Shown: one piece after another, positions 45,963 to 53,166 of the stretch | How the letters are laid out: each line of letters begins with the position of its first letter | Numbering within the stretch: the stretch's first letter is position 1 | Translations under genes and position numbers: made by a program | From: an uncultured Trueperaceae bacterium | Lineage (GTDB): Bacteria > Deinococcota > Deinococci > Deinococcales > Trueperaceae | NCBI GenBank assembly: GCA_963799485.1 | Contig: CAWCXJ010000006.1 | Span: 384,001-448,000, forward strand | Direction of reading: 5' to 3' | DNA: 64,000 nucleotides | The notes under the pieces: model-generated | Database searches by the model: none | What the model was told of the DNA's origin: nothing | Seen by the model: the letters and a program-made list of their open reading frames with translations, nothing else

Positions 45963-47399
45963 TTACCCGCCGAAGACCCGCCCCAGATACTGTGTCACTG
46001 AAAGGGCAGTGCTCGGCAGTACCCCGAACAAGAGTGTGCCGAAGACGCTGATACCGAGCGCCAAAAGATACCCCGGCCAATTGGGAACACGACTCTCGGT
46101 CTCCGGAGCCCGCAGGTACATTTCCACGATGGGCAGCAGATAGTAGTACAAGGCCACGGCAAAGTTCACAATGGCAATGACGGCAAGCCAGGTCAGCCCG
46201 CCTGAAAGCGTAACGTCTAACAGCAAAACCTTTCCTGCAAACCCGGCGAGTGGCGGGATACCGGCGAGCGACAACAGCGACAGGGTAAGGCCCACAGCTG
46301 CCAGGGGTGAACGTTGGCCCAAACCCCGTAGACCCCGCATCTCGTCACTGCCGGTGAGGCGCTCCAACTGCGCTGCAACGACAAATGCGCCCAGGTTCAT
46401 CAGCAGATACGCGAGCAGGTAGTAGCCAGCGGCGCTCAGAGCTGAAGGTACACGCTCAGCAACAGCGACGACCATTAGTACGTAGCCTGCTTGAGCGATG
46501 CTCGAGTAGGCCAACAGCCGTTTAAGCCGCGTTTGCCGCAACGCGATAAAGTTACCGAGGGTCATCGTCAGCGCAGCCAAGACAGCCACGGCAAGGGGCC
46601 AAGCGGCGAGCCCGCCCGGTAGCGCCACGAGGAGAAAGCGCAGCAGCGCTGCAAACCCCGCCAGCTTAGGGACGACCGTCAAAAACCCGGTGACGGGCGC
46701 AGACGCCCCGGTATACACGTCGGGCGCCCAGAAATGAAACGGCACCGCGGTAATTTCAAAGGCGTAACCGATTAGCACCAGACCGAAAGCGAGCGCCACC
46801 CAGACCCTATCCGCGCCTGCCAAACCTGCGCCAATCGCGGGCAGCGACAAGTTCCCGGTGAGGCCGTAAAGAAACGAAAGCCCGTAAGCCATGACCGCCA
46901 GGGCCACCGCGCCGTAGATAAAGTATTTAAGCGCTGCCTCGTTCGCCTCCCTGTTGGTTCGGACCAGCGCCACCAAGATGTACGAGGCCATGCTGAGCAG
47001 CTGCAAAAAGAGCACGATAAAGCCCAGATCGAGGCTGCTCGCCGCCAGCACTCCGCCGAGCGTCGAAAAGAGCAGCGCGACCGCCGCGTGCCCCTCTTTG
47101 CCCGTCCCGCGAAAATGTGACCCGATAGTAAAAATTGACAAGAGTGCGCCGAGCAGAATCAGGAGCTTAAAGACCGTACCGAAACCGTCTACCGCGTAGA
47201 CACCGCAAAAGACGGCCTGGTCTTGCCAAGAAAGCATCCGCACGCTAAAAACAGCTGCGGCGATAAGGCCGCAAACCGCCAAAAATACGACGACGTTTTG
47301 ACCCCGCCCTTTGCTCAGACCGGCAACCGGAACCAGCGCAAGCGCAAATCCTGCAAGAATCATCTCGGGCACAATCGCCCAGAGGTCCATGCACTCCAC
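45963..47399 (-). CDS. nuoN: NADH-quinone oxidoreductase subunit N-like
   Basis: EAALKYFIYG, VPFHFWAPDVYTGA, KRLLAYSSIAQAGY, GIPPLAGFAGK. Confidence 0.9.
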   Translation of the reverse strand: MECMDLWAIVPEMILAGFALALVPVAGLSKGRGQNVVVFLAVCGLIAAAVFSVRMLSWQDQAVFCGVYAVDGFGTVFKLLILLGALLSIFTIGSHFRGTGKEGHAAVALLFSTLGGVLAASSLDLGFIVLFLQLLSMASYILVALVRTNREANEAALKYFIYGAVALAVMAYGLSFLYGLTGNLSLPAIGAGLAGADRVWVALAFGLVLIGYAFEITAVPFHFWAPDVYTGASAPVTGFLTVVPKLAGFAALLRFLLVALPGGLAAWPLAVAVLAALTMTLGNFIALRQTRLKRLLAYSSIAQAGYVLMVVAVAERVPSALSAAGYYLLAYLLMNLGAFVVAAQLERLTGSDEMRGLRGLGQRSPLAAVGLTLSLLSLAGIPPLAGFAGKVLLLDVTLSGGLTWLAVIAIVNFAVALYYYLLPIVEMYLRAPETESRVPNWPGYLLALGISVFGTLLFGVLPSTALSVTQYLGRVFGG

Positions 47400-47403
47400 C
47401 GCG

Positions 47404-48885
47404 CTAACCGCCGCTTCCGATTCGGCTCAGCATGATGATCGTACCGTCCAACACCCGCAAGAACGGCCCCGGCAAAAGCCCAATCGCAAGTGACAGTGCA
47501 GCCAGCGGGATGACGGCTGTGGCCTCACGCGGATTCAAGTCGTGCACCTCGGGCATGTTGTCGGGCGCTGTACCCATCAAGAGAGCGGTGAGAATCTTTA
47601 GGTAAAGACCCGTCGAGATAATCAGTCCCAAAACGGCGACCAGTGCCAGCCAGATATTTACCGACAATGTTGCGCCGATCACCTGAAACTCGGCGACAAA
47701 GCCTGACAGCCCCGGTAAGCCCAACGACCCGAACGCCAGCAAACCCAGAAGACCGCTGTAAGCCGGTATTTTGCCGAGCAAACCGCCGAACCGTGCCAGC
47801 TCCCGTGTCCCTGCCTGATGCTGCAAAATCCCGGCCAAAAAGAACATCCCACCCGTCAAGAGGCCGTGGCTGATGGTTTGCAAGACCGCGCCGCTGAGGG
47901 CGAGCTGCCGCACGCCGGGGTCGCTTGAAAGTCCCCATACCGCCACGCCCAACAGCACAAACCCCATGTGGTTGACCGAGGTGTAGGCGATAAGGCGTTT
48001 GAGGTCGCTCTGCGCGAGCGCCGCCAGCGCCCCGTAAACGAGCGACACGAGTGCCAGCAGCATCAGTAACCAGGCGTACTGCCGCACCGTATCGGGCATG
48101 GTCGGGAGCATAATGGCTAAAAAGCCGTACGCCCCCATCTTGAGCTGAATCCCGGCGAGCATCACGCTGCCTTCGGTCGGCGCTTCGACGTGGGCGTCGG
48201 GCAGCCAGTTGTGGAGCGGCACGGTCGGCAGTTTGACGCCGAAACCGAGCAGTAAGCCCAAAAAGACCCAGAACCCGGTTGCTGAACCCGCGAAAGGCTG
48301 CGCCGCGCTGATGTCGGCGAGCGAAAAACTGCGCCCGCTCGCCAGGTAGAGCGCCAAAAAACTGAGCAGCATCGCCAAACTGCCGACGCGAGTATAGAGA
48401 AAGAACTTCAAGGCTGCGTAACGGCGGTTTTCGCCGCCCCAAATCCCGACGATAAAATACATCGGGACGAGGCCGATTTCGAAAAATAGGTAAAAAAGCA
48501 GCAGGTCGCGAGCCGCAAACAGTCCCAAGAGCCCGGTGCCCATCAGCAAAAACAAAAACGCATGTTCTTTAGCCCGGTCGCGCTCGGGCAGCACGTAAAC
48601 CATCGTCAGGGTCATCAGTAGCGCAGTTAAGACAATCAGCGGGAGTGAAAGTCCGGTGACGGCGACGTCATAGCTCGCACCCAAACTTGGAATCCACGGC
48701 GTAGTGGCGCGCCACTGAAGCTGCGGGCCGGCGGGATTGTAACCTATCCACAAAACGAGCGTCAAAAGCAGTGTCAGCAGCGACCCGGCGAGAGCCGTCC
48801 AGCGCATGGCGCGCGCTTTCTCTCGGGGTAGTGCGAGGACGACGAGCCCCGTTAGAAGCGGTAAAAAGATGGTGATACTCAGCAT
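47404..48885 (-). CDS. nuoM: NADH-quinone oxidoreductase subunit M-like
   Basis: FYLFFE, AALKFFLYT, VKLP.VPLHNWLPDAHVEAP, KRLIAYTSVNHMG, GFVAEF. Confidence 0.93.
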   Translation of the reverse strand: MLSITIFLPLLTGLVVLALPREKARAMRWTALAGSLLTLLLTLVLWIGYNPAGPQLQWRATTPWIPSLGASYDVAVTGLSLPLIVLTALLMTLTMVYVLPERDRAKEHAFLFLLMGTGLLGLFAARDLLLFYLFFEIGLVPMYFIVGIWGGENRRYAALKFFLYTRVGSLAMLLSFLALYLASGRSFSLADISAAQPFAGSATGFWVFLGLLLGFGVKLPTVPLHNWLPDAHVEAPTEGSVMLAGIQLKMGAYGFLAIMLPTMPDTVRQYAWLLMLLALVSLVYGALAALAQSDLKRLIAYTSVNHMGFVLLGVAVWGLSSDPGVRQLALSGAVLQTISHGLLTGGMFFLAGILQHQAGTRELARFGGLLGKIPAYSGLLGLLAFGSLGLPGLSGFVAEFQVIGATLSVNIWLALVAVLGLIISTGLYLKILTALLMGTAPDNMPEVHDLNPREATAVIPLAALSLAIGLLPGPFLRVLDGTIIMLSRIGSGG

Positions 48886-51962: not shown

Positions 51963-52858
51963 GCCGGCCCTACGCCTAAAAGGATAAGCCCACCGACCAG
52001 CAGCACATTGACCATGCCGACGGGAATCAGCACGCGCCACGAGAGCTGAAGCATCTGGGCGGTGCTGAGCGGTTTGACGAGTCGCCCCAGGCCGAGCATC
52101 AGCGTCATTACCCCGAAGGTTTTGACAAGCATCCAGACCGGCGCAGGCAGCCACGGCCCCTGCCAGCCGCCCAGATAAAGTACGGCTCCCATCGCTGAGA
52201 CGGCGAAAAACAGTCCGGCAAGTACAAGACGCCAGACAAGCGCCTGCCAGCCGCCGACTACGCCCAGCACACCGCCACCGATGAACCGGGAAAACGGTTC
52301 CATAAAGGGTGCGCGGTACGCCTGCATCAGTCCGGTAACAAGGTAAAGCGCAAAGCCGACGGGCTGGAGCACTACAAACCATAAACTGCTCTGGCTTTCG
52401 ACGATGCTTACAATAGATAAAGACTCCGCCATCATGATCGCGCCGACATAGGCAAGCCCCAGCGGGACGATGTAGGCGACGAGCTGCGCGGTGATGCGGT
52501 AGTACGCGTCTACCGCGTCCGGTATGTTCGCGCCCCAACCCGTAAGCGCCACGCCCAGGACGACATAATCGACCACGACGATAAAGTAAAACGCGCCGAT
52601 ACCGATATCTTCTGCGACGAGGCCGGGGCCGAAAGGAATGACGACGAGGGCGAAGGACACGCCTAAGAGCGCCGAGACTGCACCTGCTGGGTAGAGCCAG
52701 CGGTCGGCGCTAAGGAGTTTGGCATCTTCCCGGATATGCGGCGCAGTCGCCGGCCCTAACTCGGCGCGGCGGCGCATGAACCGCTCGAGCCCCATCGTCC
52801 CCAATCCGCCGACAACGAGCGTTGCAAGAACGAAAAGCGCACCCGTAACTATTCCCAC
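51959..52858 (-). CDS. nuoH: divergent NADH-quinone oxidoreductase subunit H-like
   Basis: ADRWLY, VIPFG, GW, RITAQLVAY, RAPF, LYLGGW, WMLVKT, LSWRVLIP; GTG start inside the nuoA 3' end. Confidence 0.82.
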   Translation of the reverse strand: MGIVTGALFVLATLVVGGLGTMGLERFMRRRAELGPATAPHIREDAKLLSADRWLYPAGAVSALLGVSFALVVIPFGPGLVAEDIGIGAFYFIVVVDYVVLGVALTGWGANIPDAVDAYYRITAQLVAYIVPLGLAYVGAIMMAESLSIVSIVESQSSLWFVVLQPVGFALYLVTGLMQAYRAPFMEPFSRFIGGGVLGVVGGWQALVWRLVLAGLFFAVSAMGAVLYLGGWQGPWLPAPVWMLVKTFGVMTLMLGLGRLVKPLSTAQMLQLSWRVLIPVGMVNVLLVGGLILLGVGPA

Positions 52859-53166
52859 TCGAGCCCCCCCATCGCCCAGGCGTAGGTAATTCCGGTTGAA
52901 AGAATCGCGATAAAAACGAGCATGTCTAAAAAGGCCTCGAGCCCTCTTTCGGCGAATACCACCGCCCACGGATACATATAGATCATCTCCATGTCGAACG
53001 AGAGGAATATCAGCGCGTAGACGACGTAACCAAAGCGAAACTGTGCCCACGCTGCGGGCGCTTTTAAGAGCCTCGCTTGCGGTCGCCAAAAGGCCGCGCC
53101 GAGCAGCGCAAGCCCGGCGGCGATGAGAGCCAGCAGACCGACGACGGCGTAACTGCCGAGAATCAC
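52849..53166 (-). CDS. nuoA: shortened NADH-quinone oxidoreductase subunit A-like
   Basis: YALIFLSFDMEMIYMYPWA, YAW..GGLEWE. Confidence 0.88.
   Translation of the reverse strand: MILGSYAVVGLLALIAAGLALLGAAFWRPQARLLKAPAAWAQFRFGYVVYALIFLSFDMEMIYMYPWAVVFAERGLEAFLDMLVFIAILSTGITYAWAMGGLEWE

Follow-up and report, generated by a model that had tools for sequence, protein, structure and literature searches.

The 64,000-nucleotide stretch of DNA analyzed here (the window, in which all coordinates are counted unless a contig or locus is named) comes from the genome of an uncultured Trueperaceae bacterium (G000) and carries, on its minus strand at 45963-53166, an operon of seven genes, nuoA-H-J-K-L-M-N, for the membrane subunits of complex I (NDH-1). 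We propose, with confidence a little better than even, that this operon encodes a self-contained Cu(I) exporter, copper-induced and proton-driven, that would have arisen from the membrane arm of complex I.

All seven open reading frames (ORFs) are free of stop codons, and in a profile search every product scores above the cut-off of its expected Pfam family: nuoA-like (52849..53166, 105 amino acids (aa)), nuoH-like (51959..52858, 299 aa, GTG start), nuoJ-like (51078..51962, 294 aa), nuoK-like (50770..51081, 103 aa), and the antiporter subunits nuoL-like (48920..50773, 617 aa), nuoM-like (47404..48885, 493 aa) and nuoN-like (45963..47399, 478 aa). The gene junctions run from -10 to +34 nucleotides (nt) (A/H -10, H/J -4, J/K -4, K/L -4, L/M +34, M/N +4), and therefore no gene can fit between the members of the operon. 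This bears out the first-pass annotation of the sequence, which had described an intact arm-only operon with no space for missing genes. The same annotation had seen no gene of the quinone (Q) or NADH (N) module, no hydrogenase and no MrpB/E/F/G or DabA-type gene nearby, and among the 30 window ORFs that we scanned, from 34.8 to 63 kb, none matched the NuoB/C/D/E/F/G/I, hydrogenase, MrpB/E/F/G or DabA families (farther to the left, ORFs were inspected by eye only).

The host genome (3.66 Mb, 99.99% complete) has a complex I of its own. A canonical nuo operon, which the first-pass annotation had suggested seeking elsewhere in the genome, was found on contig C7: it is complete (nuoABCDEFGH-x-IJKLMN), includes its own membrane arm, and contains the only NuoB and the only NuoD detected in a search of G000. 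The eight antiporter-like genes of the genome are divided among the window (three), the C7 operon (three) and an Mrp operon on contig C5 (two). Because the C7 operon is complete and holds the genome's only NuoB and NuoD, the window genes are not the sole membrane arm of the genome, docking separately encoded NuoBCDI to form a normal complex I. Nor are they a recent duplicate of the host nuo operon, which is ruled out by the identity of only 25-29% between the window NuoH and the canonical NuoH of the host, together with their separation in trees. Between the canonical nuoH and nuoI of C7 lies an additional 170-aa gene, MOSC-like by eye (G000:C7:164092-164604, locus L013).

To locate the changes that set the arm apart, we compared the residues of the window proteins and their relatives (the family) with those of canonical complex I, after removing frameshifted or incomplete rows (1-7 per subunit) and assigning E. 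coli NuoH numbering via alignment to 7nyh_H. In NuoH, the family has lost 17 positions at which 85% or more of the canonical rows carry a charge. E157 is V in 28/30 family rows and I in the window, compared with E in 18/18 canonical rows. In the loop between transmembrane helices 5 and 6 (TM5-6), D213 and E216 are replaced by M and F in the window, and the median count of Asp plus Glu is 2 in the family versus 5 in canonical sequences. The segment of the amphipathic helix (AH1) is shorter by ∼16 aa (30 versus 46), and a new invariant residue, D97, has appeared. The AlphaFold model of the window NuoH (predicted local distance difference test, pLDDT, 84) keeps the NuoH fold (Z 35.7 to 8e9g_H, root-mean-square deviation 2.1 Å, 288 aligned residues) and has no helix at residues 28-54. 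In NuoA, the TM1-2 loop is shortened (median 24 aa in the family versus 35 in canonical sequences), and a conserved K and E are lost. These are the segments that, in the structural passages of PMC10212512, line the quinone cavity (H TM5-6 loop) and seal it (A TM1-2 loop). Judged from the sequences, the quinone interface and the NuoB/D docking loops of the window NuoH and NuoA are lost; because the quinone-site loops and acidic residues are gone, we support the first-pass reading of the arm as redox-uncoupled.

These losses count heavily against a spare arm that would assemble with the host NuoBCDI(EFG) into a normal alternative complex I, an explanation that we consider very improbable. H-E157, V or I in the family, is called invariant where PMC8357420 treats it; the acidic TM5-6 residues, amphipathic helix and NuoA loop motif are missing, as is the N E133/K217 pair described below; and the host NuoBCDI already have an arm. 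On the other side, 28/29 carrier genomes have a NuoD-family match, and in its account of Nitrosococcus oceani PMC3772326 assigns a comparable gene set, Noc0474-0481, to forward complex I. Furthermore, in two actinomycete loci, L085 and L091, an arm of canonical type with the order A-H-(J)-K-L-(M)-N lies beside a divergently transcribed B-C-D-I, and therefore gene order alone cannot prove uncoupling. This layout is a possible stepping stone toward arm-only operons.

The ion-translocating subunits carry a different pattern of change. NuoM has lost no canonical charge (E144, K234, H248, K265, H322, H348 and E407 are present), and K-E36/E72, A-D79/E81 and J-Y59 are present in 32/32 rows, the window equivalents being NuoK E37/E75, NuoA D58/E60 and NuoJ Y66. 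The pair formed by the TM5 Glu and TM7 Lys, together with the TM12 Lys/Glu, is thus intact in M; it is altered in N, where E133 is Q and K217 is E in 29/29 family rows (canonical E in 17/17 and K in 15/17), and at TM12 of L, where K399 is E in 29/30 (window E386; canonical K in 16/16). The metagenome loci show largely the same exchanges: N K217E in 28/28, N E133Q in 26/28, and E or D at L K399 in 30/34. In NuoN, Q also takes the place of H305, and H104 that of a conserved Glu, with K247 and K395 retained; NuoL has gained E307 and retains E144, K229, H254 and K342. The altered N and L positions are among the coupling residues discussed in parts of PMC7419157 and PMC9271201, and the relevant passages of PMC8357420 list A-D79, K-E36, K-E72 and N-E133 along the E-channel. 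The fixed swaps in N and L point to a changed job rather than drift. NuoL H338Q was discarded as a family trait: it is nearly window-specific, with H in 31/32 rows and in 34/34 of the metagenome comparison.

What the arm has gained is methionine and histidine. The Met fraction rises from 2.8% in canonical NuoJ to 9.1% in the family, from 2.9% to 6.3% in NuoA, and slightly in NuoK, with no rise in NuoH, L, M or N. The new residues of A, J and K adjoin the coupling carboxylates: in NuoA, M59, M61 and M64 flank D58/E60 (0/12 canonical sequences have them); NuoJ has 15 family-conserved Mets, of which M64, M65, M73 and M77 on TM3 occur in 0/15 canonical sequences; and NuoK has new M76, M83 and M84, M76 occurring in 0/17 canonical sequences. 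In addition, the NuoJ TM3-4 loop, 17-19 aa in canonical proteins, has a median length of 102 aa in the family (range 45-204), with a high content of His, Met and acidic residues. In the window this loop spans residues 82-190 (51393..51719, minus strand); its 74-aa core contains 7 His, 6 Met, 23 Asp/Glu and no Cys, and it is probably disordered according to a low-confidence prediction. The structural description in PMC10212512 places the NuoJ TM3-4 loop where the membrane arm meets the peripheral arm. In a sister-type operon, L166, the same loop of NuoJ (L166:3586-4320, plus strand) contains a PF19335 heavy-metal-binding domain (HMBD, expectation value E 4e-14); PF19335 is found in 110 of the 120 best-ranked L166 NuoJ homologues, a ranking biased toward the domain by the query. 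Some of these homologues have further Zn-ribbon-like domains.

The genes around the arm are those that the first-pass annotation had noted, with copper genes on both flanks. Immediately 3' of nuoN lies a gene for a Csp-like, Cys-rich four-helix copper storage protein (45404..45814, minus strand), whose match to TIGR04401 (E 5e-11) is below the cut-off. Upstream of nuoA, a rhodanese-domain protein (53380..53814), two genes without clear family (a 363-aa membrane protein and a 195-aa protein, 54016..55691), the csoR repressor (55809..56129, ending 2.6 kb upstream of nuoA) and the copZ chaperone (56126..56329) are all on the strand of the arm, and copA, a Cu-exporting P1B ATPase (57402..59924, TIGR01511 above cut-off), is on the plus strand; the rhodanese, csoR and copZ genes were assigned by profile matches. 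The rhodanese gene adjoins the arm in only one other tested locus, L114, and the two genes without family do so also in L115 and L117.

The wider association with copper genes, which the first-pass annotation had proposed surveying, was examined in two sets of loci. In the first, the markers were Cu-ATPase, DUF305 (which we take to be copper-binding) and CusA/CzcA, searched genome-wide with the sister-type genome G086 excluded. A marker lies within 15 kb of the family nuoH in 14/29 genomes, compared with 0/29 for the canonical nuoH and an expectation of ∼0.8. For the second, held-out set, 22 marker queries were fixed from the first set and applied to new loci flanked by 8 kb or more: 15/19 loci have a copper marker (10/14 after dereplication), compared with 5/271 13-kb tiles of G000 (island excluded) and 0/20 reference nuo/Hyf-type loci, whose flanks are shorter. 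The association with copper genes thus extends across the family.

Possible control elements were also found. G000 contains exactly two copies of a 12-base G-tract palindrome, one before copZ (56351..56362) and one before copA (57339..57350). The same 12-mer has one copy in G062, ∼50 nt before nuoA, and one in G061, where it precedes a DUF305 gene followed by nuoA. A candidate box lies directly upstream of the arm in L040 and L039; in the window it is upstream of copZ instead. In four loci (L049, L064, L149 and L157), copZ-csoR runs directly into nuoA. As characterized in sections of PMC3902906, CsoR operators are G-tract pseudopalindromes with TAC/GTA ends; the palindrome, which is without those ends, is a candidate CsoR-bound operator.

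Several observations weigh against assigning the arm to copper. None of the three first-survey markers lies within 15 kb in 15/29 genomes, these markers were chosen after the neighbours had been seen, and the set also picks up Zn/Cd/Co relatives; the genomes include non-independent kin, six of the matches forming one Ignavibacteria/Bacteroidota group. Even the wider marker set is absent from 4/14 dereplicated held-out loci, and L050, L055 and L061 adjoin Na/Ca or Na/H exchangers instead. The exact palindrome is absent from G083, and a reversed control pattern occurs 0, 1 and 1 times in G062, G061 and G083, respectively. In the window no palindrome stands directly before nuoA, and csoR and nuoA are separated by three genes with gaps of 117-213 nt, so that co-transcription is assumed; copA, moreover, is already present in the island. 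As for the subunits themselves, Met is a common membrane residue, the NuoJ insert varies from 10 to 169 aa, and the arm subunits show no membrane Cys motif. The NuoJ AlphaFold model is poor (pLDDT 55): the Met residues are present, and a continuous path among them is only putative.

Some of this evidence fits an arm that is redox-free and copper-regulated but carries a common cation or protons (Na+/H+ or K+/H+ exchange, pH control), with Met and His serving as a metal gate or sensor. Such an arm might support pH and ion balance when copper damages Fe-S enzymes. We regard this as possible, at a probability well short of even. It is served equally by the uncoupling evidence (the lost NuoH charges and shortened loops) and by the Na/H or Na/Ca exchangers that replace copper genes beside some loci; according to PMC4607728, bovine complex I when uncoupled catalyses Na+/H+ exchange, and the N. 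oceani gene set is ammonium-responsive in the expression data given in PMC3772326. Against it, the host genome already has a full Mrp, the Na+-module subunits MrpB/E/F/G are absent, and the new Mets are intramembrane, next to the coupling carboxylates, rather than confined to the loop.

Our preferred reading, Cu(I) export, would work as follows. The cargo would be Cu(I), possibly Ag(I) too, moved by secondary transport at the expense of the proton-motive force. Release of CsoR would induce the arm together with copZ and copA, as the position of the candidate operator suggests, although only relatives have it immediately ahead of the arm. NuoJ may then capture the metal with its His/Met-rich cytoplasmic loop, at the position of the peripheral arm, and the metal would pass along a putative Met-lined site in the bundle of NuoA TM2, NuoJ TM3 and NuoK TM3, by D79, E81, E36 and E72; the residues are seen, and the path is our proposal. 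This site would lie at that end of the charge axis at which Na+ is coupled in Mrp. Inward proton flow through NuoL-M-N, the reverse of complex I, would drive transport, with the rewired N and L residues retuning the coupling and NuoH, without its quinone site, acting as a sealed scaffold. From general bioenergetics, several protons per cycle could provide the energy for exporting Cu(I) against the membrane potential. Outside the cell, Csp, DUF305, Cus or oxidases may take over the copper. That the arm translocates ions at all is something we infer from its sequence.

Direction of transport is not given by sequence, and copper import, or delivery to cuproenzymes or storage proteins, would suit neighbours such as Csp, CopC/CopD, cupredoxins and a CtaG-type oxidase assembly factor. 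We prefer export because expression would lie behind a copper-released repressor: the candidate CsoR-type operators and the placement of copZ-csoR imply expression at high copper, and entry of Cu(I) would be downhill, presumably making three proton modules superfluous. Import or delivery is in our view quite unlikely.

The operon belongs to a rare and scattered family. Of 7999 scored candidates, 384 proteins matched the window NuoH at E ≤ 1e-20; the best 120 of these 384 are 62-100% identical to it, and Deinococcus, Methylobacterium and Rhodopseudomonas are among their names. The closest operon relative is L039, in a record titled Truepera sp. (NuoH 87%). The seven-gene order is conserved in 31 genome loci, three plasmids and the metagenome loci, as far as contigs extend, the exceptions being the sister-type L066 (where A and H are separated by an extra gene) and L173 (a short rearranged contig); in L059 the arm is located directly behind a canonical nuo operon. 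Record titles cover Deinococcota, Chloroflexota, cyanobacteria, Alpha-, Gamma- and Deltaproteobacteria, Actinomycetota, Bacteroidota and Ignavibacteria. No match to canonical B/C/D/E/F/G/I was found in 62/62 further loci (60 from metagenomes and two genome regions, many of them short). Within the phylum of the host, the family occurs in 11/364 genomes, and the family NuoJ was found in 0/400 further genomes sampled from the phylum of G071. A query of the ESM Atlas returned only NuoJ-named clusters. Two Deinococcus genomes have two operon copies each (L045/L047 and L046/L048). The family is sporadic, crosses phyla and is in part plasmid-borne. The ratio of nonsynonymous to synonymous substitution rates (dN/dS) for the seven genes is 0.056-0.102 relative to the nearest relative, L039, and 0.076-0.186 relative to L040: the genes are under purifying selection. 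A pseudogene, relic or chance assembly is ruled out by the intact frames, the low dN/dS against L039 and the recurrence of the gene order across loci.

To establish descent, we built a FastTree phylogeny of 109 L/M/N-type sequences, in which the Mrp reference is a single pair, that of the host. The family L, M and N each form one clade (support 0.8, 1.0 and 1.0), lying inside the NuoL, NuoM and NuoN groups and separate from the Mrp pair and nuo genes of the host as well as from three Hyf/Ehr-type loci. This placement, which answers the phylogenetic question raised in the first-pass annotation, rules out an Mrp or Hyf/Ehr identity; on these sequences the family descends from complex I, not from Mrp or Hyf/Ehr. 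A concatenated H-K-M-N tree (FastTree, 28 rows, midpoint root) nests the groups in the order canonical, L066, L166, window family, with support of 1.0 for the two deeper nodes and only 0.32 for the family stem. In L066 the extra gene between nuoA and nuoH (L066:1603-2910, plus strand) encodes a 435-aa, Cys-poor NuoB-NuoD fusion (PF00346, E 1e-7). It has 514 homologues, and 111 of the best 120 contain at most 2 Cys; none was found by genome search in G000. The L066 operon has cupredoxins and a BlaI/CopY-type repressor as neighbours. L166 has no B-D cap, and N K217 and L K399 are still present. These intermediates suggest that the redox head was lost stepwise, in an order of events that is itself reconstructed. 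We give an even chance to the fuller scenario, in which a multi-proton Cu(I)/H+ antiporter would have evolved from a canonical arm through a form with a Cys-poor B-D cap and a cap-less form with a metal-binding domain in NuoJ to the charge-rewired family.

The B-D fusion also raises the possibility, the other option named in the first-pass annotation, that a new partner docks on the arm, either a periplasmic cytochrome c or a redox or enzymatic head whose genes lie elsewhere, with ion flow coupled to the partner's reaction as in DabAB or Ehr-type systems. The retention of such a fusion in a sister family with hundreds of homologues favours it, as do the retained NuoH fold, the new invariant charged residues and a c-type cytochrome gene beside the arm in nine loci (L056-L058, L060, L062, L065 and L067-L069). 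It found little support nonetheless: no non-arm neighbour is common to more than about one third of loci, the window has no cytochrome neighbour and its genome no B-D cap, and the cytoplasmic docking loops are deleted or de-charged. We consider it unlikely. In six of the nine loci with a cytochrome neighbour, a small Met-rich protein is encoded ahead of nuoA.

It is instructive to compare the family with systems already known. With complex I it shares the seven membrane subunits in canonical order, the placement of L/M/N within the NuoL/NuoM/NuoN clades, the NuoH fold, the NuoM axis, K E36/E72, A D79/E81 and J Y59. It differs in having no Q- or N-module, no quinone-site loops and no H-E157, in the exchanges N E133Q/K217E and L K399E, in its Met-rich A, J and K and His/Met-rich J loop, and in being accessory, patchy, plasmid-borne and copper-linked. 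Like Mrp, it has redox-free antiporter-like subunits, which would be driven by the proton gradient. In the portion of PMC7419157 that treats coupling, Mrp couples its cation at a J/K-like region, and by analogy the arm probably works like Mrp. Unlike Mrp, however, it has three antiporter subunits, no MrpA-type L+J fusion and no MrpB/E/F/G; it keeps NuoA and NuoH, the latter without Mrp counterpart, and the best profile matches of the arm are Nuo. The Hyf/Ehr-type (group 4 hydrogenase-related) and 11-subunit complex I-like enzymes are likewise modified relatives that keep NuoH and antiporter subunits, but they retain NuoB/D(/C/I)-like hydrophilic subunits, of which the arm operon has none; the Hyf/Ehr-type loci L088-L090, where the Ehr label is a reading of gene content, branch separately. 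CopA P1B-ATPase and CusCBA resemble the arm in its putative Met/His metal ligands and probable CsoR control, and CopA and CusA have no homology to it. The DabAB/MpsAB carbon transporters, which we assume to reuse a NuoL-like subunit in the same way, have two subunits rather than seven, and DabA-type genes were absent from the scanned part of the window.

The nearest published counterpart is the N. oceani set Noc0474-0481, labelled 'NuoAHJKLLMN (C I-membrane arm)' in the section of PMC3772326 that covers it. It is arm-only and in the same order, transcribed and co-regulated, being down-regulated by ammonium. It differs in having two nuoL entries and in being read as forward complex I; our comparison is by description, the part of that source concerned containing no residue or metal analysis. 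PMC4453560, where it treats incomplete operons, discusses only partial operons without NuoEFG, and the mentions of 'NuoAHJKLMN' examined in parts of other papers concern ordinary complexes. In the literature searched, which did not cover subscription journals and supplements, we found no arm-only operon described as a transporter. The family is apparently an undescribed, conserved variant of the complex I/Mrp superfamily, failing the defining features of complex I.

Other features of the window surround the operon. A 36-aa ORF with a good ribosome-binding site (53163-53273, minus strand) has a stop that overlaps the GTG of nuoA and may couple translation. Downstream of csp, a glucose/sorbosone dehydrogenase-like gene (43828-45327, minus strand) is spread over ∼4 frames and is a probable pseudogene. 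A microbial rhodopsin gene (34846-35547, minus strand; PF01036) encodes T, S and V at the bacteriorhodopsin 85/89/96 positions, a pattern that we take to resemble chloride-pumping types; a rhodopsin homologue is also near the arm in the Deinococcus plasmid locus L049. The window (38113-43668, minus strand) and that locus (L049:186-5418) have in common a 710-aa DUF4396 protein, a 421-aa protein, Csp and a two-component pair, and this common gene set suggests a mobile island. Repeat, promoter and terminator scans revealed nothing distinctive.

How the complex I arm couples distant events is disputed, and PMC10212512 and PMC9271201, in the passages concerned, disagree on proton exit through NuoL only. 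A natural, quinone-free, seven-subunit arm offers a direct test of stand-alone antiport, and its defined swaps (N E133/K217 and L K399) make it informative on coupling. If our reading is true, the family would form a class of its own among bacterial copper pumps, beside P-type ATPases and resistance-nodulation-division (RND) systems, and would present the proton machinery of complex I in a natural, stand-alone form. It would also be a mobile, cross-phylum copper-resistance device that is publicly labelled NADH-quinone oxidoreductase: an ion antiporter re-emerging from a respiratory enzyme.

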